From Patescibacteria group bacterium (GTDB taxonomy: Bacteria; Patescibacteriota; Microgenomatia; UBA10105; UBA927): a stretch of 64,000 bases of DNA. The first letter of the stretch is position 1. The number at the start of each line of letters is the position of its first letter. Shown piece after piece: positions 7,826 to 62,190 of this stretch. The notes beneath the pieces were generated by a model, which was not told the origin of the DNA, did no database searches, and worked only from the letters and a program-made list of their open reading frames with translations. Made by a program: the position numbers and the translations under genes. The stretch lies in contig JAHJMO010000002.1 in NCBI GenBank assembly GCA_018821245.1, forward strand, positions 9,231-73,230, given 5' to 3'.

Positions 7826-7866
7826 CTACAAAATTTTCACGCCATGGCATGACTTTTTTGTAGTAA
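7826..7866. repeat. palindromic hairpin element copy 1 (ctacaaaaTTTTCACGCCATGGCatgacttttttgtag)
   Basis: Inverted repeat ctacaaaa...ttttgtag around a conserved core TTCACGCCATGGC. A second copy lies at 8617-8660, and the two flank the PaaX-like gene. Confidence 0.7.
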
Positions 7867-7888: not shown

Positions 7889-8593
7889 TTAGGCTATACC
7901 AAAATAATCCCGATAAGGCGAATCATCTTCTAGAGTCGTTGCGACAATATACAATACCTCGTTGCCTACACCATAATATTCTTTCAGAAAAGTCACCTGT
8001 TTTTCACAAGGATATGGATATAACCAAACGCTTTCCTGCAGCTTACAAAATCCTAAGGCTCGCAACGCTTCGCGAAAAACATCGCGCAACCGTTTTTTTC
8101 TGTTTTCCACATCGTAGACAATCAGCCTCCAACGACCGTCCCATTGTCTAGGCTTTTCGATAGATAATTCATCGAGAGCATATTTTAAAATTCTGCGCTT
8201 ACCCGCTTCTGAGAGAACTACTACTTCCTCACCGTTTTGCCCCTTAATTTCAACATATTTTTGCTTATGAAATCGTTTAATCGCTGAACGTAAATACGAA
8301 GGATTATATTGCTTCCAAACTTCATATTTCTTTCGTCGTTCTTCGTCCAAAAAAGGCTTTGCCAATATTGCGGCGGATGGCGAAATAAACGACAATCCTA
8401 CTACACCAGCTAAACCGAGAAACGCAAGAATATGCTTAACTGGAGCGTAGCGGCGATGAATTTCTTCCTGATGAATCTGTTTTGCCAGAATCGTTGATAG
8501 CTCTGCAATTCTTTCATCAGAAGGAACTGTAAGCTGTGTATCTAATCGTAGTCGTTTCTTTTGCTTGATTGTTCTTATTGATACCATAAACAA
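7889..8593 (-). CDS. PaaX-family-like transcriptional regulator homolog with N-terminal TM segment
   Basis: ...VVVLSEAGKRRILKYALDELSIEKPRQWDGRWRLIVYDVENRKKRLRDVFREALRALGFCKLQESVWLYP aligns to the E. coli PaaX segment YSLSDKGLRLTRRAESKIYRAEQPAWDGKWLLLLSEGLDKS...GFGAL.PSLM. The region after the WDG motif also looks Cas2/VapD-like (YDV..R.K..R......G....Q.SV), an observation made from the sequence here. Confidence 0.5.
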   Translation of the reverse strand: MFMVSIRTIKQKKRLRLDTQLTVPSDERIAELSTILAKQIHQEEIHRRYAPVKHILAFLGLAGVVGLSFISPSAAILAKPFLDEERRKKYEVWKQYNPSYLRSAIKRFHKQKYVEIKGQNGEEVVVLSEAGKRRILKYALDELSIEKPRQWDGRWRLIVYDVENRKKRLRDVFREALRALGFCKLQESVWLYPYPCEKQVTFLKEYYGVGNEVLYIVATTLEDDSPYRDYFGIA

Positions 8594-8616: not shown

Positions 8617-8660
8617 TCATACTACAAAATATTCACGCCATGGCTTGGGTATTTTGTAGT
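8617..8660. repeat. palindromic hairpin element copy 2 (tactacaaaataTTCACGCCATGGCttgggtattttgtagta)
   Basis: Same core and inverted-repeat arms as copy 1. Confidence 0.7.
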
Positions 8661-8831
8661 ATACCCTATTTATTAAGCTGGTGACAAGTGACGGCAAGCG
8701 AATAAATGATGACAATAATAATCAAGTAAGTGAGACGAAAGAAAATTTGAGGTATAATATGATCTTAAGTAAGGTTACTTAATAAGTATAGGCAGTTTCT
8801 GATTTCGACTGTCATAAATTGGGATCTTGGC

Positions 8832-8904
8832 TGGGAGATCGTCCAATGGTAGGACAACAGACTCTGGATCTGTTTATCTAGGTTCGAATCCTAGTCTCCC
8901 AGCC
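8832..8904 (+). tRNA. tRNA-Gln (anticodon CTG)
   Basis: Hand-folded cloverleaf: acceptor UGGGAGA/UCUCCCA (U1-A72 and G73, typical of bacterial tRNA-Gln), D-arm GTCC-AATGGTA-GGAC, anticodon arm ACAGA-CTCTGGA-TCTGT (anticodon CUG), T-arm CTAGG-TTCGAAT-CCTAG. CCA is not encoded. Confidence 0.8.
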
Positions 8905-8931: not shown

Positions 8932-9291
8932 ATGTCCAAGAGGACACTTGTTGCGGAGAATGGCGTTTTAACGTTCTATGGAAAAACTAAATTTTCTTGG
9001 GGAGAATTACTTATTATTGGAGTGACAAAAAAATTCAGTATTGGCGTTGATACGATAGTTCCTCATAAGGAAACCGACAAAGAAGGTACGTATTTAAAAA
9101 AAGGTCGTGTGATGTATTTTGTAATCAAAGGAAGAGGACTATGTGGAGACAAACCAATTAAAAGTGGCGATATCCTGCAGATTAAAGAGGGGCAAAAGAT
9201 AAACATACAAAATAATTCTTCAAAAAAATTAATAATCATAACAATCTATATGCCTCCGTATAACGAAGATAATATTGGATATGAAACATAG
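8932..9291 (+). CDS. hypothetical small protein, possible cupin-like beta-barrel
   Basis: 119 aa, AT-rich, with a weak cupin-like G-x5-PHKE...E...G pattern. First gene downstream of tRNA-Gln in the low-GC island. Confidence 0.3.
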   Translation: MSKRTLVAENGVLTFYGKTKFSWGELLIIGVTKKFSIGVDTIVPHKETDKEGTYLKKGRVMYFVIKGRGLCGDKPIKSGDILQIKEGQKINIQNNSSKKLIIITIYMPPYNEDNIGYET

Positions 9292-9439
9292 CGCAAGACA
9301 GGCAACAAGAATTTACCATACACAACTGTATACTGATAAGAAATTATTTCGGAAAGGCGCGTCGTGGTTAGATAAGCCAGAAAAATAAATTCTTTCAGTT
9401 ATTAAGAATAATTTTCTTGGCAAAAAGAACATTAAAGTT

Positions 9440-9982
9440 TTGGATTTGGGTTCTGGGGTGGGAAGAAACGCAATTCCTATAGCTCAAATGATTGGGAAAT
9501 CAGGTGGAGAAATTATTTGCGTGGATTATCTTGATGTCGCAATTGATAAACTACATGAATATATAGAACTATACAATGTAAGTAAATATATAACAGGCAT
9601 TTTTTCTTCACTTGAAGATTTTGTTATAAACCCAGATGATTACGATTTCATCATCGCCCATAGTGTTTTAACTCACATGGAGAATAAAGAGAAAATGATT
9701 CAAACAATGAAAGATATGGCAAAGGTCACAAAGAAAAACGGTTTTGTGTATATGTATGTAATTACTAATCACAGAGAATTTGATAGAAAGACAGGAAAAG
9801 AACAGAAACTTGAAGATGAGGTAGAGATTGGCTTTGACGAAGCATGTTCATTTCTCAAGAATATTTATAGTGGATGGACAATACTGGCATTAAAGAAACA
9901 TCCGTATGAGGAAACGTTTAACAGACGAGGCAAAGAAATACGTTGGAATGTTGACTATTTGTTATTTATAGCAAAAAAATAA
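9440..9982 (+). CDS. class I SAM-dependent methyltransferase (N-terminally short or truncated)
   Basis: Starts at motif I (LDLGSGVGRN) with an acidic residue after beta2 (VDYLD). A TTG start and an in-frame stop at 9386 leave at most 17 aa upstream of motif I. Confidence 0.6.
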   Translation: MDLGSGVGRNAIPIAQMIGKSGGEIICVDYLDVAIDKLHEYIELYNVSKYITGIFSSLEDFVINPDDYDFIIAHSVLTHMENKEKMIQTMKDMAKVTKKNGFVYMYVITNHREFDRKTGKEQKLEDEVEIGFDEACSFLKNIYSGWTILALKKHPYEETFNRRGKEIRWNVDYLLFIAKK

Positions 9983-9993
9983 CAATAATAATC

Positions 9994-10014
9994 TCTAGAC
10001 CGGCCAGCTCAGCT
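9994..10014. repeat. post-stop inter-cassette motif copy 1 (tcTAGACCGGCCAGCTCAGCT)
   Basis: Shares the consensus AGACCGGCCNGCTCAGMTCAGG with copies after three other consecutive genes. Confidence 0.7.
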
Positions 10015-10018
10015 AAAT

Positions 10019-10516
10019 ATGTCAACAGAAATTCATCAAGATATAAACAAAGCAATACTTATTGTGCGTGATGCAGGGAGATGGCTAAAAGAGAGTGGAA
10101 AAAATCCTTCTAAATGGTGGTTATTAAAAAACCTCAATAAAAAATTTCTTTTAAAGTATGCAAAACCTGAAGAATTTTATGTAGCTTTAGTTGATAACAA
10201 ACCTGCAGCTGCAGCCGTACTTCAGTTTAGTCAAAAAGCTCAAGATTGGAAAAGTATTGATAAAGATAAACTCAAATCCGTTCTTTATATCCATTGGCTT
10301 TGTGTTCACAGAAAATTTGCAGGAAAAGGTTTTCCGAAAATAATGGTTGATTTTGCAGAAAAGTTAGCCAAAGAAAAAAACGTTAAACTTTTACGAGCCG
10401 ACACTAACGCAAAAGAGATGAAATTGAGAAAAATCTACGAGGATTTAGGGTTTAATTTTGTCGGCGTTGAGCAAGAAAATTATCGCCATACAGCCTTTTT
10501 TCAAAAAAAGATATAA
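10019..10516 (+). CDS. GNAT family N-acetyltransferase
   Basis: ...LYIHWLCVHRKFAGKGFPKIMVDFAEKLAKEKNVKLLRADTNAKE....IYEDLGF. GNAT motif A (R/Q-x-x-G-x-G/A) and the overall topology are present. Confidence 0.7.
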   Translation: MSTEIHQDINKAILIVRDAGRWLKESGKNPSKWWLLKNLNKKFLLKYAKPEEFYVALVDNKPAAAAVLQFSQKAQDWKSIDKDKLKSVLYIHWLCVHRKFAGKGFPKIMVDFAEKLAKEKNVKLLRADTNAKEMKLRKIYEDLGFNFVGVEQENYRHTAFFQKKI

Positions 10517-10521
10517 TTGCC

Positions 10522-10545
10522 CTGGATCGGTCAGCTCAGATCCTG
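10522..10545. repeat. post-stop inter-cassette motif copy 2 (ctGGATCGGTCAGCTCAGATCCtg)
   Basis: Same motif family; it has internal dyad GGATC...GATCC. Confidence 0.65.
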
Positions 10546-10601
10546 AAAAAAGACATCTTAGCTCTCAGCCAAAGGTAGATTTCAACAGCTTTGGAGGAAC
10601 C

Positions 10602-10639
10602 CATCCGTATGTGTCTAGCTAGCACACACCGGGTGTGTG
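10602..10639. repeat. 38-bp dispersed element copy 1 containing the perfect inverted repeat CACACACC-G-GGTGTGTG
   Basis: catccgtatgtgtctagctagcacacaccgggtgtgtg is identical to 11900-11937. It also contains the CTAGCTAG palindrome. Confidence 0.8.
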
Positions 10640-10650
10640 AATTATATATT

Positions 10651-11274
10651 ATGTTCAAAAATAAATTATTTTTGATTATTGAAACCGGTTATTTGTTTAT
10701 TTTCCCTTTGATTTTGCTGCGCTTTTATCCAACCTTCATTCACTACCGCATTTATGTATTGATGGGCAGTCTCATTTATATTTTTATTGTGGTTTATTCT
10801 CAGAAAATTACCAGTAAAAATCTCGGGCTTAATCCGAGCAGATTCTTTCCGGCAACCAAAGCGCTTTTTATACCTACTGTGCTTAGTATGTTACTGACTT
10901 TTGTTTTCTTTCAACTCGCAAGAAAGTGGTTAATAATTCCTGTGCTTGTTGAAGAAATTCGAACTCCTTCTATAGCCGTTTCTGTTTTAACTTATATTTT
11001 TGTTTCGGCTCCACTGCAAGAATTTGTGTATCGCGGCTACTTAGTTTCCAGACTGGAAATCGTTTCTCGTAATGCAACTTTTATAAAACTTTATAGCGCA
11101 ATAATCTTCATGGTAATTCACACGCCGTTTTACAATTGGTTTTTACCATTGGGTTCGCTAATTTTAGGCTTGCTCTGGACTGGTAATTTCCTTACATATA
11201 GAAACGTTTATGCCTTAATGCTGAGCCATACTCTAATCGGAGCCACGTATATTATTCTGATGGGTATGAGTTAA
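10651..11274 (+). CDS. CPBP family intramembrane metalloprotease (CAAX protease/Abi-like)
   Basis: Polytopic membrane protein with CPBP motifs QEFVYRG (motif 1), FMVIHTPF (FxxxH, motif 2) and SHTLIG (motif 3). The ATG at 10651 is preferred over the TTG at 10591. Confidence 0.65.
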   Translation: MFKNKLFLIIETGYLFIFPLILLRFYPTFIHYRIYVLMGSLIYIFIVVYSQKITSKNLGLNPSRFFPATKALFIPTVLSMLLTFVFFQLARKWLIIPVLVEEIRTPSIAVSVLTYIFVSAPLQEFVYRGYLVSRLEIVSRNATFIKLYSAIIFMVIHTPFYNWFLPLGSLILGLLWTGNFLTYRNVYALMLSHTLIGATYIILMGMS

Positions 11275-11283
11275 AAAAGGTCC

Positions 11284-11309
11284 CAGACCGGCCCGCTCAG
11301 CTCAGGCCC
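11284..11309. repeat. post-stop inter-cassette motif copy 3 (cAGACCGGCCCGCTCAGCTCAGGCCC)
   Basis: Same motif family, followed by a hairpin ctgacgggcag...ctgcccgtc. Confidence 0.7.
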
Positions 11310-11403
11310 TGACGGGCAGGGGTCTTTGGTATCCTGGTTCACTGCCCGTCGGCTTTACCGAAGGCAATGCAGGTAGGGAATCCAGGCTGGGCAGCAAATA
11401 ATT

Positions 11404-11817
11404 ATGAATACACAAAAAATAACAGCTAAGTTAAAATCATTTTATCCTGGCAGGAAAGTTATAGTTACTGATCCCCTGAATCCGACTGAAATTATTTGTG
11501 AAGTCGAACTAACAGAAGAACATCCGAAGTGGAGTGTTGCTGTTGCGGTCATCGATTCTACTCGTTTACATTACCATAAGCGGTTAACAGAGATATATCA
11601 TATTATGAGTGGTAAATTGAACATGTATCTTAATGGCCAACTGCACCAGCTACAACAAGGCGATATTATAAAAATTCCTCCAAACACACGTCACTATTCC
11701 ATTGGTAATGAAACTATCGTGTATGTCTATGCAACACCTGGTTGGGCGCCTGAGGATCATGTCTTGGTGATTGATAAAAAGGAAATATCCAGAAAGAAAT
11801 ACGACAAGAGGTTCTAG
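11404..11817 (+). CDS. cupin domain protein
   Basis: HYHKRLTEIYHIMSG ... GD.IKIPPNTRHY fits the two-motif cupin pattern; 137 aa. Confidence 0.6.
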   Translation: MNTQKITAKLKSFYPGRKVIVTDPLNPTEIICEVELTEEHPKWSVAVAVIDSTRLHYHKRLTEIYHIMSGKLNMYLNGQLHQLQQGDIIKIPPNTRHYSIGNETIVYVYATPGWAPEDHVLVIDKKEISRKKYDKRF

Positions 11818-11840
11818 ACCGGCCTGCTCAGATCAGGACC
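11813..11840. repeat. post-stop inter-cassette motif copy 4 (tcTAGACCGGCCTGCTCAGATCAGGACC)
   Basis: Here the TAG inside the motif is the stop codon of the cupin gene. Confidence 0.7.
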
Positions 11841-11899
11841 CAGGAAGAATTTTCCGGTTCACGGCCAAAGGCTGATTCTCGACAGTTGTGAAGAGCTTT

Positions 11900-11937
11900 C
11901 ATCCGTATGTGTCTAGCTAGCACACACCGGGTGTGTG
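11900..11937. repeat. 38-bp dispersed element copy 2 (inverted repeat CACACACC-G-GGTGTGTG)
   Basis: Identical over 38 bp to copy 1. Lies about 215 bp upstream of the hydrolase gene. Confidence 0.8.
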
Positions 11938-12153
11938 CAAACAAATTCTCTGCAGTATGAAGCGCAAAGGAGAACCGGTACAGAAGAGAGCGGAACTGAA
12001 GATGGGTAATCCCGATGACGGATAGGAATAGGTCTGGATGTTTGGTAAGATAGTCTAGGTTCATAGGGCAGGACACCTCCTGCCTCTAGTGTAGTATCAA
12101 AAGCTATTTCACTACAACTCTATTTACATACACTTTACTGGGATAGTTTATAC

Positions 12154-12879
12154 ATGAAACAGATTGAATTTTTGGTCAATAATCGAATACTTAAAGGAAC
12201 GCTCTTCTCCTCTCACAACATCAAAGCAAAAAATCCCGCAATTCTCTTTATTCATGGATGGACGAGTGAAAGAGCAAGAAGTTATCAATATGCAAATGCA
12301 CTTACAAAACTTGGCTACATTTCTTTTTTGTTTGATATGAGGGGGCACGGCGAAAGCGAGGGCGATATAAATAGCTATACACCGAAAGAATTCTTTGCTG
12401 ATGTTCTAGCGGCTTATGATTATTTAGCCAAGGTTGAAAATGTAGATAAGGAGAATATCAGTGTTGTGGGCAGCAGCTTTGGATCATATCTCGCAGCGCT
12501 CCTAACCACTAAAAGGAATGTTAAGCGTTTAGCTCTCAGGGTTCCAGCTGATTACCCAAACGAGAATTTTAATAAATCTAAAATACAATCCAGTGGAAGC
12601 AGTAATCCCAAACTGGTATTATGGCGTAAACAAATAAAGAAATCACCGGAAACATTTGCGCTTGAGGCGATTGCTAGTTTTGACGGAGAAATTCTGATAA
12701 TTGAATCGGGGAAAGACAACTCTGTTCCTCACCAAACAATCCAAAATTACATAAACGCAATAAATGACAAAAATAAATTAACTCATATCGTAATGAAAAA
12801 CGCACCGCACAGCATAAAAGAAGGTCCGTTCAGAGACGAGGTAGAAAAAATTTTGGTAGATTGGTTTAAAAAAGGATAG
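12154..12879 (+). CDS. alpha/beta hydrolase (dienelactone hydrolase / esterase-like)
   Basis: HGW oxyanion region, nucleophile elbow VGSSFGS, later Asp/His (ESGKDNSVPH), ~240 aa. Confidence 0.65.
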   Translation: MKQIEFLVNNRILKGTLFSSHNIKAKNPAILFIHGWTSERARSYQYANALTKLGYISFLFDMRGHGESEGDINSYTPKEFFADVLAAYDYLAKVENVDKENISVVGSSFGSYLAALLTTKRNVKRLALRVPADYPNENFNKSKIQSSGSSNPKLVLWRKQIKKSPETFALEAIASFDGEILIIESGKDNSVPHQTIQNYINAINDKNKLTHIVMKNAPHSIKEGPFRDEVEKILVDWFKKG

Positions 12880-12881
12880 CT

Positions 12882-12900
12882 GCACACGCCGGGTGTGTGC
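12882..12900. repeat. degenerate third copy of the inverted repeat (GCACACGCC-G-GGTGTGTGC)
   Basis: One mismatch relative to a perfect dyad. Located between the convergent hydrolase and 12912..13358 genes. Confidence 0.6.
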
Positions 12901-12911
12901 GTTGCATCGCA

Positions 12912-30358: not shown

Positions 30359-31381
30359 TTATCCATGAGTATACCATGCATCAACAAGCTTTTCTACTTT
30401 TACTCTGTAAGACTTATTGCAAATATCATACCATTGTGCCGAAAAGTTTTTCTTAAACCATGTAACCTGCCTTCGTGCATACGCATGTTCATCGCTCTTC
30501 CACTGATTCACGGCGCCTATGAACATCTGTGGTTTGTCCTTATCCGGCGCTTCGATATAACTCTTCCACTGCCTATATCCTAAAGCGGCAAATGATGGCA
30601 GGTCCCAGGTATATCCTTTACGCAACAAGTCTTCTATTTCCGCTATCATCCCCTGTTCAATGCGCCTGTCCACCCGGGCATCGACCCGGCGGTATAATAC
30701 CGACAAAGCAGTGGACAATACAATAGCACAAACATCATGCTTTGTTTGAAAAAATTCTCTTTCACACGCGGGTTTATTTGTTTTGTGAGAGTTGACTATC
30801 TCGATTTTGCGAATCAACCGTCTGGGGTTTTGCCTGTCTGATGCGTTTAACCTGTCCCAAATCATGGGCGCGATACTGCATAATTCTGCCTGAAGATAGT
30901 CAAGAGACTTGTCTTGTAAGTGTCTGCGCAGCGTGACATCCGGCGGAATATGAATAGTCTCCAAGTGATCAGTAAGCGATTTTACGTACAAACCCGTCCC
31001 TCCAACCACAATCGGCAGCTTTCCCCTGCTCCATATATTATCTATAACGGCTGTGGCCAACGCCTGATAGTGCGCGACACTAAATGCCTCATCAGGCCGA
31101 ACCACGTCATACATCCAAATCGGAATATTATTTAATAAGTAAGGAAATACTGTGTATATATTATTTTTGTATTTAACTGTGAACTGTAAAATTTCAAATA
31201 TGAACTTTTTACCTGGCAGATCCTTTCCTGTCCCTATGTCCATACCCCTATACCCTTGCCGGGAGTCGGCGCTCACCAACTCACCGTCATATTTTTGAGC
31301 CAACTTCAATGACAACGCCGTCTTCCCTGTCGCCGTCGGCCCGCAGATGATCAATAATTTATTCTGTGGCTTCATATTCAC
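30359..31381 (-). CDS. miaA: tRNA dimethylallyltransferase MiaA (with insertions)
   Basis: P-loop GPTATGKT, IVVGGTGLY, adjacent to miaB; 340 aa. Confidence 0.8.
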   Translation of the reverse strand: MNMKPQNKLLIICGPTATGKTALSLKLAQKYDGELVSADSRQGYRGMDIGTGKDLPGKKFIFEILQFTVKYKNNIYTVFPYLLNNIPIWMYDVVRPDEAFSVAHYQALATAVIDNIWSRGKLPIVVGGTGLYVKSLTDHLETIHIPPDVTLRRHLQDKSLDYLQAELCSIAPMIWDRLNASDRQNPRRLIRKIEIVNSHKTNKPACEREFFQTKHDVCAIVLSTALSVLYRRVDARVDRRIEQGMIAEIEDLLRKGYTWDLPSFAALGYRQWKSYIEAPDKDKPQMFIGAVNQWKSDEHAYARRQVTWFKKNFSAQWYDICNKSYRVKVEKLVDAWYTHG

Positions 31382-31415
31382 ATGTTAACACGTTAATATA
31401 TATTGCTCTTGAAAC

Positions 31416-32531
31416 TTATTGTTTTTTCACTAAATTCGGTTTATTAATCAAGTCTTCCAAAAACTTCCAACGGCGTTTTTTTTTGGAATGAGGAACGTCA
31501 TCTTTGTAAATTTTGTGGGCGGTTGTCAACGGCCGGTCGGAGTAAACAGAAATGTATGCTTTGTAAAATCCGGCTTTTTTGCAGAGGTCAACGGTATTTT
31601 GAAACTGCTCTTCGGTTTCTCCGGGAAATCCGACAATAATATCTGTGCTTAATTGTATAGTATTAATTTTTGATTTTAACTTAGCGATGAGTTTTATGTA
31701 CTCGTCGCGGGTGTACCACCGGTTCATCTTTCGAAGGATTTTGTTATCGCCTGATTGTACCGGCAAATGGATCTGGCGGGAGACGTTCGGATTTTTTGCA
31801 ATTACATCTATCAAATCATCGGAAAAATCCCAAGGATTACTTGAAATAAAATCAATTAGTTTAATTCCTTTTATTCTACAAATTTCTTCCAAAAGCTGCG
31901 GGAACAACGTCGGGATTCTCAATCTCCCTAAGTGTTTAACATAAACCGGCTTTACTCCTGTATTTACAATATCTGCACCATAAGAATTGACGTTCTGGCC
32001 AACCAGAGTGATATGCGTATAGCCGCTTTTGGCCAACTCCATACATTCGGCAATAATCTCTTCAAACGGCCGGCTGACTTCCCGTCCGCGTGTAAACGGT
32101 ACGACACAGTACGTACAGAAATTATTACAGCCGTTGCTGATCGGCACTAACGCGTGTTTAGCGTCGCCCCGAAGGGGCGCGTGGTCAAAACCAACCTCCT
32201 CAATCGGCAAAAATTCATCAACTTCCGGTAGTTTCTTTTTGAAAAGTGCTAACATTTTCCCCGTTTTTTCGCGCACTGCCATCCCAACCATACAGCCGGT
32301 GACCACAATCTTAAATTTAAAATTTTCAGTTTTTAATTTTGATAAATTTTTTACTAATCCATACACTCTGTTTTCCGCAGACTCGCGGATCATGCAGGTA
32401 TTAATGACAACTACGTCAGCATCTTTAATCAATTTGGCTTTTTTATACCCCCTTCCCTCATAACCGGCCGCGATCCGCTCGCTGTCAGCAACGTTTTGGG
32501 CGCAGCCGAAGGTAACGATGTGATATTTCAT
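31416..32531 (-). CDS. miaB: MiaB-family radical-SAM methylthiotransferase (short form, no obvious TRAM domain)
   Basis: N-terminal MTTase domain (IVTFGCAQN), radical SAM CNNFCTYCVVP; 371 aa. Confidence 0.75.
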   Translation of the reverse strand: MKYHIVTFGCAQNVADSERIAAGYEGRGYKKAKLIKDADVVVINTCMIRESAENRVYGLVKNLSKLKTENFKFKIVVTGCMVGMAVREKTGKMLALFKKKLPEVDEFLPIEEVGFDHAPLRGDAKHALVPISNGCNNFCTYCVVPFTRGREVSRPFEEIIAECMELAKSGYTHITLVGQNVNSYGADIVNTGVKPVYVKHLGRLRIPTLFPQLLEEICRIKGIKLIDFISSNPWDFSDDLIDVIAKNPNVSRQIHLPVQSGDNKILRKMNRWYTRDEYIKLIAKLKSKINTIQLSTDIIVGFPGETEEQFQNTVDLCKKAGFYKAYISVYSDRPLTTAHKIYKDDVPHSKKKRRWKFLEDLINKPNLVKKQ

Positions 32532-33541: not shown

Positions 33542-34330
33542 TCAACTGCTGGCACTTGCGTAGTAGCGAAGGGCAAATCGCCAAATTCGACGAGATAAAT
33601 AGAAAAAAAATGTCGATAAGACAAGCAGCCTAATGATTTCTACCCAAGTAAATTTCCCCATGAGAATATGTGCAGGAGTATTAATAATAAGTGTAATCGG
33701 CAACAATATGAAAAACAATACATTTATTAGCTGCTGGGCTACTTCCCGAGGGAACCGGGCAAAGCTTTCGAAAGAATACAAGAGCAGTACTAAATTTGAC
33801 AAACTGCTATCCCATATAAGCACACTTAATGTGGAATACCATAATGAATATAATAAAACCAAAGAGAAAAACGCGATCGTGATTACGCTGAGCATTTGCA
33901 CAAACGTGACAGCAATTCCTAATATATTAATAAACCATAGGGTATAACAACCAGCCATGAGAATTCTTAAAATGATAGTAAAATCGACCAACCAAAAACT
34001 CAAGGCAAACTGTGAATCTATTGGTTTGGTCAGAATCAAATCCAAATCACCAAGGTGAATCACTCTGGAGAACCTGCGCATGTTGACTGAAATCAGCATG
34101 TGGAATACACCGATGATCATCCCGTAAAGCCCATTGAATAATAATATTTCCTGCCTGCTCCAACCGTATGCTGTGTTGATATTGTTGGTAAGAAGATAAA
34201 TAGAATATAGAGATATAAATCCCCACCCCACACTTGCTATTATGCTGTTGACAAAATTAGCACGATAAGCAGTTACATTGGCAAAATTTAATCCCAATAA
34301 TTTTTTGTAAATCCGTAAGTAACGAAACAT
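33542..34330 (-). CDS. ABC-2 family transporter permease
   Basis: 6-TM hydrophobic protein immediately downstream of a second permease and an ABC ATPase. Confidence 0.6.
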   Translation of the reverse strand: MFRYLRIYKKLLGLNFANVTAYRANFVNSIIASVGWGFISLYSIYLLTNNINTAYGWSRQEILLFNGLYGMIIGVFHMLISVNMRRFSRVIHLGDLDLILTKPIDSQFALSFWLVDFTIILRILMAGCYTLWFINILGIAVTFVQMLSVITIAFFSLVLLYSLWYSTLSVLIWDSSLSNLVLLLYSFESFARFPREVAQQLINVLFFILLPITLIINTPAHILMGKFTWVEIIRLLVLSTFFFYLSRRIWRFALRYYASASS

Positions 34331-34331
34331 A

Positions 34332-35135
34332 TTATTGGCCTACGGCGGTAAAACGTCTTAAACCGGAGCGCCATACCAGCCGATAAAGCCACAAAAAAAA
34401 CAAAATCCATAATATTTGAGCACCGATAACCTTCCAAAGTCCCAATACGCTCATATTTCCCTGGAAAGCTATTACCGGATAATAAATCATGTGGGCAATC
34501 GGACCAGCAAGAGCTACCTCACGCAAGCCGCCCGGAAGCAGGCTCAAAGGAAGTATATAACCTGCAAAAATTAAAGAGATCATCGTTTCCAGGTTATTTA
34601 CCCCTCTAAAATCAGTTACCCAAAAGGCCGATAATCCCACAATCATCTTATAGGTAAAAGATAATAAATATCCAAAAAGTATTATGAGGGCAATATACGG
34701 ATACTGCGCCGGCTTTGCTAAAGGAAATTTATAGAACGCGATGGCCGTGCATAAAATTATAACTCCGAATGTTCCTTGTATAATCCGCCACGGAAGCTCC
34801 TGACAGAATTTAATCCAGTAATACGAAAACGGCTTGGTCAAATATCGCGAAAGCCATCCTAACTGAATGTCTTCAAAAGCAACTTCCTCCTCAATGTGTA
34901 CATGCAGCAAACATCCAGCTATTATCATAAGAAGGTAATATGAGACTGCGCCCGGCAAATTCCAAACAGAATTATTATCAAGAATTGCTCCTCTCCAAAA
35001 CAACAGATACATCGCTGATTCAGATAAAGTAACCAAAAACCAAACGAGGGACCGCCATTTATATTCTAAAGCATGCTGACTGTATAGGAGGAATATCCGT
35101 AATATTCTACGCATATTTATTTTTTGCAAACACAT
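34332..35135 (-). CDS. ABC-2 family transporter permease
   Basis: Polytopic membrane protein in the operon with the ATPase at 35107-36087. Confidence 0.6.
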   Translation of the reverse strand: MCLQKINMRRILRIFLLYSQHALEYKWRSLVWFLVTLSESAMYLLFWRGAILDNNSVWNLPGAVSYYLLMIIAGCLLHVHIEEEVAFEDIQLGWLSRYLTKPFSYYWIKFCQELPWRIIQGTFGVIILCTAIAFYKFPLAKPAQYPYIALIILFGYLLSFTYKMIVGLSAFWVTDFRGVNNLETMISLIFAGYILPLSLLPGGLREVALAGPIAHMIYYPVIAFQGNMSVLGLWKVIGAQILWILFFLWLYRLVWRSGLRRFTAVGQ

Positions 35136-40006: not shown

Positions 40007-40083
40007 CGGGGTGTGGCGCAATTGGCTAGCGCATTCGCATGGGGTGCGAAAGGTTGCTCGTTCAAGTCGAGTCACCCCGACCA
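40007..40083 (+). tRNA. tRNA-Pro (anticodon GGG), CCA encoded
   Basis: Hand-folded cloverleaf: acceptor CGGGGTG/CACCCCG, D-arm GCGC-AATTGGCTA-GCGC, anticodon arm TTCGC-ATGGGGT-GCGAA, T-arm GCTCG-TTCAAGT-CGAGT, discriminator A plus CCA. Confidence 0.8.
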
Positions 40084-58931: not shown

Positions 58932-61037
58932 CTATGAGGTTTTTGCAATGATCTTTTCCTGAATGTTCTTCGGCACTTCCTCGTAATGGCTGGGTTCCAT
59001 ATAATACGTAGCCCTTCCTTTTGACATACTTCGGAGTGTCGTCGCATAACCGGCAAGCTCGGCAAGCGGAACAAAAGCGATAATAATTGTTACCATCCCA
59101 CGTTTTTGCGTTCCTTGGATCTGCGCGCGTTTGGCTCCAAGATCGCCTATAATATCTCCCATAAATTCATCGGGGGTCGTCACTTCTACCTTCATGATAG
59201 GCTCCAAAAGCGTAGGCTGAGATTGTTTCACAGCATGCTGAAGAGCCATGCTTCCGGCAATCTTGAATGCAATCTCCGAACTATCTACGTCATGGTACGA
59301 GCCGTCATAGAGAGTAACCGTCAGGTCCACCATGGGATAGCCTGCTAAAACACCATTTTCCGAAGCTTCCTTCACTCCTTTTGCGATAGCAGGAATGAAC
59401 TCTTTGGGTATTGCTCCGCCTTTTATCGCGTCCACAAATTCATACCCCTCACCACGGCCTTTAGGTTCAACCCGCAGGAAACAGTGTCCGTATTGGCCCC
59501 GACCTCCGGACTGGCGTATATATTTCCCTTCTCCTTCTGCCGATTGTCGAATGGTTTCTTTGTACGCAACTTGAGGAGCGCCAACGTTGGCCCCGACTTT
59601 AAACTCACGTTTCATCCGATCTACTATAATCTCCAGATGAAGCTCTCCCATACCCCAAATTATGGTTTGATTGGTTTCTAAATTGCTTTTGATTTTGAAT
59701 GTCGGGTCTTCCTCGGAAAGCCTTTGGAGTGCATACCCCATCTTTTCCTGATCGTTTTTGGTCTTGGGCTCTATAGCCAGAGATATGACCGGATCCGGAA
59801 ACGTAATTTTTTCCAGAACGATCGGCTTGTCATGGTCGCATAGAGTATCACCGGTTGGGGTATCTTTGAGACCTACAACTGCTACAATCTCCCCTGCGTA
59901 CGCTTCTTTAATTTCTTCTCTTTGGTTAGCATGCATAAGAAGGAGTCTCCCGACACGCTCCTGAATCCCTTTCGTCGGATTGAACGTATAAGAACCCGAA
60001 GCGAGCTTCCCCGAATATAAACGTACGTATGTCAGCTTCCCTACATGAGGATCGATTTGAATCTTAAACGCCAAACCGGAAAATGCTTCATTGTTGACAC
60101 GCCTGCGTGTTTCTTTCGTCCCTGTCTTTGGATTTATACCTTCAACAGGCTTTAAGTCCAGAGGAGACGGAAGATAGTCAACTACGGCATCCAATAAAAG
60201 CTGTACCCCTTTGTTTCGTAAGCTTGATCCTGCATAGATCGGGACCAGCTGGTACGAAATGACTGCTTTCCGAAGCGCAATTTTGAGTTCTTCTATCGCG
60301 GGTTCCGTGCCGTTTAAGTATTTTCCCAAAAGAACGTCGTCTGTTTCCGAAATACGTTCAACAAGGAGGTGGCGTTGCTTTTCTACATCTTCTTTGAGAT
60401 TGTCGGGTGCAGTATCGGTGACATCAAACTTTGCCCCCATCTCATCACTGCCCCATATACACACTTTGCGCGTCAGAAGATCGATAACGCCTTTAAATTC
60501 ATGCTCCCTGCCGATAGGAACAACCATCGGCGCAGTATGCGCACCGAGACGCTCTTCTATAGATTTAATTGTCGCATAGAAATCGGCACCGATTTTATCC
60601 ATCTTATTGATAAAACACAGGCGGGGAACGTTGTACTTGTCCGCCTGATGCCACACGGTCTCCGACTGACTCTGCACGCCCTCCTCCGCATCAAGAACCG
60701 TAATGCCGCCGTCAAGGACCCGAAGAGACCGTTCTACTTCTGCTGTAAAATCCACATGACCGGGAGTGTCGATGATATTGAAGCGATATCCGTTCCAGAA
60801 TGTTGTTGTTGCCGCTGACACTATCGTGATGCCCCTCTCCTTCTCCTGCTCCATCCAATCCATTTGGGTAGTGCCCTCGTCGATGTTGCCGATTTTGTAC
60901 GTCCTTCCTGTATAGTAAAGGATGCGCTCGGTCGTTGTGGTTTTTCCGGCGTCGATATGGGCAATGATGCCGATGTTACGCACCTTTTCCAGGGGTACGT
61001 CACGGTCCAATGTCAATTTGGTTTGTGGTGATGCCAT
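58932..61037 (-). CDS. fusA: elongation factor G
   Basis: [25 protein letters not shown], domains III-V; 701 aa. Confidence 0.95.
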
Positions 61038-61341
61038 AAAATATTAAAAACTGTCCCACCAAGCCGGCGGAACAGCCATGCTTCTTTCCTCCTCATTGTA
61101 CTAAAAAGGCAACGCGTTGTCTAGAATTCGCCCTTCAGTGAGGTTGTACGCTGGAGAGTCAATCCAGTATTCTAAAATCATCCCCCTCTAAAGACACTTC
61201 GGTTGACTCAGTGTAAACAGGCAGGCAACAAACGGGCAAAGTAGTTATTTATGAAATCAAAATTACCAAAACCGTGCCTAAAAGAGAACCGTCCCCTCGT
61301 ATAGTAAATAAATGGACAGCAAGGGATAAGATAACCCGTTA

Positions 61342-61536
61342 TTATTTCAATGTTGCAGAAACTTTATTCGGGGCAATCATATTTGCAGTTATTTCTGCAG
61401 CGTTTCGGGGAACATTAGCATAATCTAATAAAGATTCTGCTTTTTGCCATAATTTATATTCATAATCAACCACTGCTAAATCTAAAGGGCAACCAAGCAG
61501 TACCGGAGTGGATGGATCAGGTGGTTTAAGAGACAT
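61342..61536 (-). CDS. small hypothetical ORF in low-GC insert (possibly a gene fragment)
   Basis: 64 aa, AT-rich, no recognisable family. Confidence 0.2.
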   Translation of the reverse strand: MSLKPPDPSTPVLLGCPLDLAVVDYEYKLWQKAESLLDYANVPRNAAEITANMIAPNKVSATLK

Positions 61537-61668
61537 CGTAGTAACGTCAACTGTTCCTAATTTATAGCAATTTACTTCTGATTGGCCTTCCGTTGGGTTC
61601 CCAAATCCGAATAATGTTCCGGCGTGAGGTGGTACTTGCGCAATAACAACAGGATAAGTAGCAAAATT

Positions 61669-61887
61669 TTAATTGATTAGTGCTAGTAGGCGTTGTTCAT
61701 AACCGTCAATTTTACCTTTAGGTTGATGTCCCCACTCATAAATATCCGGATTCGGCCTACCTTTAATATTACCAAAATATATAATGACGACTTGTTTATC
61801 TCCCGGAATTACTCTAATTTCACGGATAGAACCGTTAAAAGGTAAGGATTCCACAATCGATTTAGATGTTTTGTCTTCTGATGACAT
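61669..61887 (-). CDS. small hypothetical ORF in low-GC insert (possibly a gene fragment)
   Basis: 72 aa, AT-rich, no recognisable family. Confidence 0.2.
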   Translation of the reverse strand: MSSEDKTSKSIVESLPFNGSIREIRVIPGDKQVVIIYFGNIKGRPNPDIYEWGHQPKGKIDGYEQRLLALIN

Positions 61888-61899
61888 ATTTTATAAATA

Positions 61900-62190
61900 T
61901 CAATTTTTATTATAATAACAATAATTGATACGAAAGGCAACACAGCGCACAGCGCACAGGTCTTTTTTTATCACGTTCAAAAACAAAAAATATTTCTGTA
62001 TTTTTACTAAGCGGCCGCGTGTGTAATTTACAGATATAAAAATCTTTAGAATATGATATTCAGTTATGAGATTTCTCATTCCCGCTTCTAGAAGTTTCAT
62101 GCCGGTTGTCGTTGGAAGTAAATTAAAATCGCCACAGAGAATTTTTGCTTCATCTCTTTTAGACAGAAAATCTTTAAAATGAATCTCCAA
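61900..62190 (-). pseudogene. C-terminal fragment of an endonuclease/exonuclease/phosphatase (EEP) family gene
   Basis: ORF begins ...EAKILCGDFNLLP, the EEP catalytic GDFN motif that normally lies in the C-terminal third. No upstream N-terminal domain is present. Confidence 0.4.

Follow-up and report, generated by a model that had tools for sequence, protein, structure and literature searches.

A 64-kb stretch of DNA from a Patescibacteria group bacterium (GenBank assembly GCA_018821245.1, contig JAHJMO010000002.1), called the window below, carries an intact tRNA-Gln gene followed by six AT-rich open reading frames (ORFs), and four of these ORFs are followed by copies of the same short GC-rich motif. 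We analyzed this islet and its motif in the window, which is all of the host-genome sequence covered, and in related contigs and loci (numbered L001 to L174). All six ORFs are co-oriented, and the first begins 27 nt 3' of the tRNA gene, as at the start of a tRNA-gene (tDNA) island. The islet genes have a GC content of 33 to 38%, compared with 46% in the remaining window and 42 to 66% in the spacers between them. The initial annotation, made from the sequence alone, had described co-oriented accessory genes with conserved unit ends, and this holds, with a base composition (33 to 38% versus 46% GC) that marks the genes as foreign. Pfam also confirmed the identities that it had given them (S-adenosylmethionine [SAM]-dependent methyltransferase, GNAT acetyltransferase, CPBP protease, and cupin). 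It had missed the tRNA-Gln anchor, the tRNA-Gln 3' fragments that lie between modules, and a sixth AT-rich ORF at 8932 to 9291 (orf119).

The orf119 stop codon overlaps the start of the methyltransferase gene. The latter had been thought to be 5' truncated, but its translation instead reveals a full-length frame from the ATG at 9281, broken by an in-frame TAA at 9386 to 9388, and the annotated 180-amino-acid (aa) ORF starts at 9440. The same 180-aa remnant is called in four other assemblies that span the TAA (L001, L002, L041, and L162), and the gene is probably a pseudogene. Promoter-like matches are not enriched in the array (17, versus 14.2 +/- 3.3 in shuffles). In being a co-oriented array of short, mostly promoterless accessory ORFs, each with a site, it matches integrons and clusters of attC sites lacking integron integrases (CALINs).

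The window is 99.7 to 99.9% identical to GCA_018829345.1 and GCA_018820385.1, and another five independent assemblies carry the array as well (L001, L002, L041, L162, and, in part, L003/L163). Therefore, it is not an assembly artifact. One of these contigs, L003 (Logan SRR10598174; 1,323 nt, corresponding to window positions 10610 to 11929), was considered as an excised circle and rejected. Its 30-nt identical ends lie inside a 38-nt repeat, where a k=31 assembly would be expected to break, so it is no evidence of an excised cassette.

The sequence GAYCGGYCNGCTCAG has four exact matches in the window, all on the plus strand (at 9998, 10525, 11286, and 11817), and a fifth with two mismatches at 11291, which overlaps the third copy. 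Shuffled sequences had a mean of 0.75 matches, and 0 of 100 shuffles reached five. A stricter 21-mer pattern gave three matches, with 0.00 expected. A profile built from related copies (nhmmer) found four sites only, all within 1.9 kb, and the motif was absent from the other 62 kb of the window. Between stop codon and motif there are 11 nt behind the methyltransferase TAA, 5 nt behind that of GNAT, and 7 to 10 nt behind that of CPBP, whereas the cupin stop codon is the motif's own TAG (11815 to 11817). These distances bear out the 0 to 15 nt, and the shared TAG of the cupin gene, that had been reported. The GNAT ATG lies 4 nt past T 10014 of motif copy 1 (6 nt past GCTCAG). The motif had also been said to follow five consecutive accessory genes. 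That was correct for four of them (methyltransferase, GNAT, CPBP, and cupin) but not for the fifth, the hydrolase gene, which is followed only by the 19-nt palindrome GCACACGCCGGGTGTGTGC. This palindrome also closes the spacers 3' of the GNAT and cupin genes, which are homologous elements of ~120 nt with an identical 38-mer in common. With CTAG before it (GCACACRCCGGGTGTGTGC), the palindrome occurs three times in the islet. Neither the interior of the ~120-nt spacers nor the 38-mer had a match in any related locus compared. Feature coordinates are collected in Table 1.

Table 1. Features of the tRNA-Gln islet, in window coordinates
Feature	Position	Strand	Remarks
tRNA-Gln (CUG), intact	8832-8904	+	ARAGORN; Rfam tRNA, 66.9 bits; docking point of the islet
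orf119 (119 aa), first AT-rich ORF	8932-9291	+	Weak cupin-like match; GC 0.333; no motif after it
SAM-dependent methyltransferase frame	9281-9982	+	Pfam Methyltransf_31/25/12/11; translation
Motif copy 1, TCTAGACCGGCCAGCTCAGCT	9994-10014	+	nhmmer E = 1.6e-5; terminal part of the element only, ~21 nt
GNAT acetyltransferase module	10019-10516	+	Pfam
Motif copy 2, CTGGATCGGTCAGCTCAGATC	10522-10542	+	nhmmer E = 0.084; most diverged
Possible tRNA-Gln 3'-end relic, ATCTTAGCTCTCAGCC	10555-10570	+	15/17 to the window tRNA-Gln 3' end, one gap; not significant alone
38-nt exact repeat, copy 1	10602-10639	+	Terminates in palindrome GCACACACCGGGTGTGTG (10622-10639)
CPBP (Rce1-like) intramembrane protease module	10651-11274	+	Pfam
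Motif copy 3, GAGTTAAAAAAGGTCCCAGACCGGCCCGCTCAGCTCAGGCCC	11262-11309	+	nhmmer E = 1.7e-8 (profile positions 6-47); the ~40-nt element at its most complete
GGTATCCTGGTTC	11328-11340	+	Resembles tRNA-Gln variable loop, T-stem, and start of T-loop; 12/14 matches to L164 tRNA-Gln, p ~0.05; supportive only
Displaced tRNA-Gln 3'-end fragment (putative), GAATCCAGGCTGGGCAGC	11378-11395	+	14/18 matches to tRNA-Gln 3' ends
Cupin module	11404-11817	+	Pfam; final codons and TAG stop within motif copy 4
Motif copy 4, GGTTCTAGACCGGCCTGCTCAGATCAGG	11810-11837	+	nhmmer E = 2e-7
38-nt exact repeat, copy 2	11900-11937	+	Palindrome at 11920-11938
Alpha/beta hydrolase, last AT-rich gene	12154-12879	+	Pfam; no motif after it
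Third palindrome copy, GCACACGCCGGGTGTGTGC, 19 nt	12882-12900		Between the convergent hydrolase and 148-aa genes, at the distal edge of the AT-rich block

The association of the motif with tRNA-Gln is not confined to the window. A tRNA-Gln gene is on 7 of the 26 motif contigs scanned. It lies 0.6 to 2.7 kb upstream of the motif and on the same strand in L115, L154, L135, L084, and L061, and nearby in L112; L039 and L040 also carry one. The related hot spots are flanked by L,D-transpeptidase and Lon genes on one side and Obg on the other, whereas the window islet is flanked by a PaaX_M-like gene and a nucleoside deoxyribosyltransferase-like gene. Because these flanks differ, the tRNA-Gln link is not inherited synteny. 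Synteny of L084 and L135 with the window had been a candidate and was rejected, the flanking proteins being unrelated.

Pieces of tRNA-Gln 3' ends also lie within these islets. In L135, an exact 16-nt duplicate of its own tRNA-Gln 3' end follows the tRNA at a distance of 76 nt. Module boundaries in L084 hold a foreign-allele 3' end (ATCCTAGCCCCGCAGC) in two copies, and L154 and L112 have one further copy each. In the window, the fragment GAATCCAGGCTGGGCAGC lies 8 nt 5' of the cupin ATG. Its score of 14/18 is reached at 4 other places in 128 kb (both strands), besides the real tRNA and the fragment itself. The case for reading it as the displaced, though degenerate, tRNA 3' end of a tDNA island is moderately strong. 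A regenerated tRNA gene together with a displaced 3' fragment is an accepted mark of insertion at a tRNA gene (PMC4383910). The CCTGG in GGTATCCTGGTTC is complementary to the CCAGG in the relic at 11378 to 11395, and CCTGGTTC, 40 nt upstream of this fragment, is complementary to its T-stem.

Comparison with relatives suggests what was inserted. The closest homologue of the cupin outside the species (81% amino-acid identity) is on L039/L040, where an intact tRNA-Gln (UUG) ends 9 nt before its ATG. The fragment at 11378 to 11395 sits where the intact tRNA-Gln sits in L039/L040, ahead of a cupin upstream flank that is homologous in the two. Behind the L039 cupin there is a degenerate motif in the same place as in the window (E = 0.0034), and the motif of the L027 cupin is weaker (E = 0.17). 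The ORF after the L039 cupin holds FVHGYGTDKDEG, a stretch typical of alpha/beta hydrolases, and we take it from its sequence to be a putative member of that family. In the window, the intact tRNA and the displaced fragment bracket ~2.5 kb, which indicates that orf119, the methyltransferase, GNAT, and CPBP were inserted between them. These four genes would thus have entered between tRNA-Gln and a pre-existing cupin-hydrolase pair.

Outside the islet, the motif is absent from the host lineage in the sequence covered, and relatives of this lineage also lack the islet. Its relatives (with PaaX_M homologues of 60 to 76% identity, and named Gottesmanbacteria) keep the divergent PaaX/tRNA-Gln pair, and there is no copy of the motif in 78 kb of their sequence. 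L169/L170 have helicase genes after tRNA-Gln and no motif-bearing array. Gene content at tRNA-Gln differs among relatives (L039; L169/L170; L084 versus L135), as it does at tDNA islands. Two independent Logan contigs from such relatives, L164 (1 to 72) and L168 (1 to 72), end exactly at the last base of tRNA-Gln, and L167 ends inside its T-arm. Such ends fit a population that varies from the end of tRNA-Gln onward, or a repeat that begins there.

Breakpoints between related contigs fall at the motif. L084 and L135 have unrelated three-gene sets between their hot-spot flanks, and homology (95%) resumes at the motif. L084 has an extra gene, for a 267-aa FkbM-type methyltransferase, whose left bound is a tRNA fragment ending in CATCCTAGCCCCGCAGC and whose right bound is the motif, ending in GGCCTGCTCAGCC. 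L089 and L114 are identical at 126/126 positions up to AGACCGGCCTGCTCAG (GCTCAG) and then match at 25/64. Their common block is a NUDIX gene plus the motif, here inverted relative to the neighboring gene, and the NUDIX stop codon is the exact site of the block's other boundary. L099 matches L073 at 60/60 positions up to GCTCAGCTA and at 22/70 from there on. In three pairs of related or identical contigs, the motif is thus where homology stops or sets in again, and in two of them it stops exactly at the motif's 3' edge. The presence/absence variation of gene-plus-motif units that the initial annotation had proposed to test for, along with replacement of units, was therefore seen between related contigs, with breakpoints at the motif, but not among the assemblies of the window population.

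One of these contigs has a further peculiarity. Both ends of L089 (5,170 nt) map 13 nt apart inside a single NUDIX gene of L114 (1328 to 1849), so that it is circularly permuted. Between two co-oriented motifs it carries four glycan-related genes, two for GT1 glycosyltransferases, one GH130-like, and one C5-epimerase-like. The contig may represent a circular molecule, a tandem duplication, or an artifact of assembly.

The motif belongs to a wider family that is common in metagenome contigs of low-GC Patescibacteria. A scan of 185,579 species genomes with the strict motif returned a single match, in an Actinomycetota metagenome-assembled genome (L026, 3199 to 3221), and is uninformative on close relatives because it did not return the window's own genome. 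The L026 match starts with the TAG closing a 111-aa ORF and overlaps the TGA of a convergent ORF; we take it to be a chance occurrence in a GC-rich genome. A metagenome scan with YAGACCGGCCNGCTCAGMT found at least 120 loci, and ~90 of those listed are high-GC chance matches inside genes. However, ~27 low-GC (30 to 46%) contigs among the matches listed share the consensus GTTATAAGGAYnnAAnGGKYC-TAGACCGGCCYGCTCAGCT, and similarity among the family copies stops abruptly at its 3' edge. The core signature, ...GGKYC-YAGACCGRCCYGCTCAG(C), is the 3' terminus of an element of ~40 nt, sometimes ~150 nt. In several copies, the longer form contributes three TGTCTCA sequences, two direct and one inverted, along with a hairpin that lies upstream.

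We also noted that the ~150-nt form has TGTCTCATT twice in direct and once in inverted orientation (TGAGACAAT), 5' of the core (L130 560 to 700; L073; L085; L115; L157; and L140). As a sequence layout, this resembles protein-binding arm sites. One long copy in L073 has an 80-nt insertion nested between the repeats.

Profile searches found 51 copies in 146 kb of family contigs, which were drawn from the matches listed, and the copies are strongly clustered. L135, for example, has four within 3 kb, and its remaining 10 kb has none. Copies are co-oriented with their upstream gene in 22 cases and not in 7, and that gene usually ends 8 to 34 nt before the core. Most of these upstream genes are accessory ones (GNAT, methyltransferases, cupin, HEPN, glycosyltransferase, GIY-YIG, DUF5676, and AAT).

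Repeats of the type TTCGACTC...GCTCAC often lie behind motif copies (L084 3589 to 3640; L135, in oriented coordinates, 10066 to 10110; L114 885 to 930 and 1850 to 1880), as they also do in L089, L096, L124, and L033 (5211 to 5504). L084 and L135 have a perfect T-arm-like hairpin with an acceptor-like tail (GAGCGGTTCGACTCCGCTCACCGTCG). These repeats may be other tRNA fragments or a second repeat family.

The motif is neither an attC site, nor an intrinsic terminator, nor an Rfam family. Folded as DNA, neither strand of any of the three long spacers differed from shuffles (z = -0.9 to -1.7; 10 to 36 of 200 shuffles fold as well), and the check for attC-like hairpins that had been suggested thus gave a negative result. 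RYYYAAC/GTTRRRY cores are absent from the four sites and their alignment, in agreement with the earlier view that these are not canonical attC sites. The best ends, CTAGAC...GTCTAG, are in one spacer only, and we saw no R''/L''-L'/R' symmetry on reading the sites. RNAalifold found 0 consensus base pairs in an alignment of 29 copies. A 5-bp hairpin proposed by hand (AGGAY/GKYCY) was discarded, being 81% paired compared with 80.5% in shuffled columns.

No motif copy has an intrinsic terminator site (hairpin plus T-run). The terminator scan listed the palindrome at 10623 to 10639 and a hairpin at 11307 to 11321, with a total of 6 versus 3.7 in shuffles. No Rfam match overlaps the motif copies in the window and 20 related loci, with nothing credible at E <= 10, and the matches above gathering score are tRNAs plus one SSU rRNA fragment (L080) only. 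Rfam had nothing credible for a long copy of the element at a permissive E-value either, and the long element has no match to a sigma-70 consensus promoter. The motif also has no stable hairpin and no copies in the other 62 kb, so it is not like the palindromic repeats of repetitive extragenic palindromes (REPs) or bacterial interspersed mosaic elements (BIMEs). A generic terminator or REP family, which had been named as the deflating explanation, is not supported for this genome, given the lack of copies in those 62 kb and in the 78 kb of host-lineage relatives, and the lack of a hairpin plus T-run.

Derivation of the motif from the tRNA-Gln 3' end was considered and rejected as an explanation, leaving at most a lead, as the best ungapped match (GTCCTAGACCGGC versus GTCCTAGCCCCGC) is not significant (p = 0.05 to 0.9 versus shuffles). 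Viral contigs gave only high-GC or in-gene chance matches without the extended consensus, and no phage attP.

Several other features of the window and its relatives were recorded. A ~40-nt palindromic sequence (CTACAAAATNTTCACGCCATGGC...TTTTGTAGTA) is present in two copies (7826 to 7865 and 8620 to 8661) that flank the PaaX_M/Cas2-like gene (7889 to 8593, minus strand), and it is also beside the homologous PaaX_M gene in L164 to L167, with 86 to 89% identity. It may be the operator of this putative PaaX_M regulator. SufB in relatives (L168 9350 to 11334; L170 14753 to 17254) holds an intein with a LAGLIDADG endonuclease domain, and the window SufB homologue (617 to 2041) is of ordinary length. 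Elsewhere in the window, there are low-GC (0.38 to 0.40) 1-kb stretches at 31000 to 32000, 34000 to 35000, and 61000 to 62000, and a second tRNA gene, tRNA-Pro, at 40007 to 40083.

Homologues of the GNAT protein are widespread in Patescibacteria. A 72%-identical homologue is on an archaeal contig (L172 to L174, 8001 to 8528), with no motif after it, and adjoins genes for ribosomal protein S3Ae, TFIIB, eIF2-gamma, and an ATP-dependent DNA ligase. There, too, its GC content is low (0.38 versus 0.48). These features suggest that this GNAT family moved between bacteria and archaea.

The explanation that we favor, with moderate confidence, is serial insertion of integrase-less modules at tRNA-Gln, with the motif as the recombination junction at module ends. 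The region from 8905 to ~12900 would be a small, horizontally acquired islet built by repeated insertion at the tRNA-Gln 3' end. Its four motif-bearing modules would end in a signature that is defined by sequence, not by fold, and at which modules join, are replaced, and travel between genomes. The tRNA-Gln anchor and the displaced 3' fragments argue for insertion at a tRNA gene rather than for attI/attC chemistry. The insertion may be of the Campbell type, with a trans-acting tyrosine integrase as its catalyst or through a single crossover by homologous recombination once DNA has been taken up. The motif might be read as DNA by a recombinase or nuclease, or it might be a short homology anchor. 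Candidate enzymes are a trans-acting tyrosine integrase, a housekeeping Xer-type recombinase, and RecA, in a single crossover after natural transformation.

Some of our observations weigh against this explanation. The array is invariant among the five further assemblies of the window population. As the initial annotation had stated, there is no integrase in the window, neither by Pfam (genes within ~8 kb) nor by tblastn (64 kb). The precomputed Pfam domains covered window positions 1407 to 21817 and included no recombinase, with several genes there lacking any hit, and the tblastn search, with tyrosine and serine recombinase consensus peptides, was a crude test. The integrase that a typical tDNA island carries, usually beside the tRNA gene, was also not found in the L084, L135, L154, and L115 islets, nor in that of the window, and by crude consensus-peptide tblastn the sole recombinase beside the arrays is an Xer-like gene near a motif copy on L140. 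The copy densities are biased, because the loci were picked, among the matches listed, for holding the motif. The orientation rule fails for 7/29 copies, and the long form lies beside possible core genes (Iso_dh, purD, xseB, and murI, the last identified from sequence). The tRNA relic by the cupin gene is degenerate (14/18), and its position was recognized after the fact. Finally, breaks at repeat edges are left by both site-specific and ectopic homologous recombination, so the breakpoints do not separate site-specific action from the latter.

The main rival, somewhat unlikely but credible, is that the motif is instead a gene-end RNA signal of a low-GC donor lineage that hitchhikes with transferred genes. 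It would be a protein-recognized element of the 3' untranslated region, active in 3'-end formation, processing, or stability, with no role in gene movement, and the breaks at its edge would have arisen incidentally, when copies underwent ectopic homologous recombination with each other. The location 0 to 34 nt past stop codons, with the upstream gene co-oriented in 22 cases versus 7, is what such a signal predicts. The motif also stays with cupin homologues and decays with their divergence (L039, E = 0.0034; L027, E = 0.17), its long form is found beside Iso_dh, purD, xseB, and murI, and a crude search linked no recombinase to it. However, there is no hairpin plus T-run, conserved pairing, or Rfam match, and the copies are in patchy clusters, with most genes on the contigs lacking one (for example, 12 consecutive genes in L085 and the greater part of L157 and of L064). 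Copies in inverted orientation to the gene next to them also occur (NUDIX in L089/L114). A gene-end signal also leaves the tRNA-Gln association and the tRNA fragments between modules unexplained.

A previously undescribed cassette system in Patescibacteria is quite unlikely. Modules with a ~40-nt site would be captured one-directionally at tRNA-Gln, by a recombinase that is encoded elsewhere or is a housekeeping enzyme, and would be exchanged between genomes. The exchange could even reach DPANN archaea, because the 72%-identical GNAT homologue is on an archaeal contig. Such a system would be a functional integron analogue without IntI or folded attC sites.

We consider it very unlikely that the motif is a selfish dispersed repeat, of the REP/BIME type or a miniature transposable element with inverted repeats (MITE), that inserts itself into intergenic DNA behind genes, irrespective of which genes these are. 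Low-GC contigs have many copies each (in both orientations on L112), one L073 long copy has a nested 80-nt insertion, and the CTAG-preceded palindrome GCACACRCCGGGTGTGTGC is in the islet three times, all of which a selfish repeat could account for. But the motif is not palindromic, has no stable hairpin, and has no copies outside the islet in the window, and no terminal inverted repeats or target-site duplications were seen. No REP-associated tyrosine transposase (RAYT) or other transposase was detected in the 64-kb window by a crude consensus search, in which the IS200 TnpA consensus also gave nothing convincing. In addition, ORFs read into the motif and use its TAG, and homologous genes keep its position, which fits coinheritance with the gene and not independent insertion.

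Finally, a true integron cassette array or CALIN with divergent attC sites and an IntI encoded elsewhere is already largely refuted and extremely improbable: the co-oriented, closely spaced small accessory genes, each with a conserved site and with cargo functions typical of chromosomal integron cassettes, do resemble one, but the three long spacers fold like shuffles on both strands, there is no R''/L''-L'/R' symmetry and there are no AAC/GTT cores, conservation is in sequence whereas attC sites are conserved in structure, motif copy 1 is only ~21 nt, a crude search gave no IntI-like signal, and tRNA fragments between modules are not an integron feature. What is supported of the integron-like array first described is the co-oriented foreign genes, their conserved ends, and the unit variation at the motif between related contigs; the integron itself is not.

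Patescibacteria, also called the candidate phyla radiation (CPR), have tiny genomes. Our literature searches turned up nothing on their gain of accessory genes at such sites, and neither the motif nor CPR integrons nor tRNA-linked Patescibacteria islets were described there. The islets point to a recurring hot spot downstream of tRNA-Gln that gathers detoxification, modification, and defense-type genes in small modules that share an end signature. Should the motif be a true recombination site, it would represent a new, integron-analogous route of cassette capture in a very large uncultured radiation, and mobile genes in CPR metagenomes could be recognized by a simple sequence tag. Should it be only a gene-end signal of a donor lineage, it would still be a marker of horizontal transfer and an uncatalogued conserved noncoding element.

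Among known systems, tRNA and tmRNA genomic islands of the Islander type, including tandem arrays, share several features with the islet. It starts right after an intact tRNA gene, and a displaced tRNA 3' fragment is at its inner boundary, following the principle described in PMC4383910. Foreign base composition and accessory cargo are shared as well, and related contigs have several fragments in series, which fits serial insertion. In contrast to such islands, no islet seen here has an integrase gene, the modules are tiny (one to four genes), and the majority of module ends have a conserved motif of their own that does not derive from the tRNA.

Integrons and CALINs also consist of one-directional arrays of short, apparently promoterless accessory genes with a conserved site close behind each, and the units here seem to have been added beside a fixed docking point, with gene-plus-site units in varied contexts. 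attC sites are imperfect palindromes of 57 to 141 bp that fold, as single strands, into R''-L''/L'-R' hairpins, and their conserved cores are RYYYAAC 5' and GTTRRRY 3'. The sites here are conserved in primary sequence and are not bulged hairpins, they have no RYYYAAC/GTTRRRY cores, and we found no IntI, attI, or cassette promoter (Pc). Docking here is at a tRNA gene, whose end is duplicated upon insertion.

The pdif (XerC/XerD) modules of Acinetobacter plasmids and the integrative mobile elements exploiting Xer (IMEXs) are small, recombinase-less modules with short, sequence-defined sites, on which a housekeeping recombinase presumably acts in trans. The modules here are alike in being small, recombinase-less, and bounded by short, sequence-defined sites. 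However, the motif lacks the 11-6-11 dyad of dif-like sites, and only one Xer-like gene is near a copy (L140). Moreover, our modules are head to tail with sites in one orientation, whereas pdif sites alternate. With REPs and BIMEs, the islet shares GC-rich repeats after stop codons in AT-rich surroundings, and its CTAG-preceded 19-nt palindrome resembles a REP unit. Unlike those repeats, the main motif is not palindromic, is not spread across the window, is shared across species, and is coinherited with particular genes.

tRNA islands and cassette arrays are known kinds of structure. What we did not find described, in the literature or Rfam, is the following combination in CPR: integrase-less modules of one to four genes, a ~40-nt end signature that crosses species, and a recurrent docking site at tRNA-Gln.

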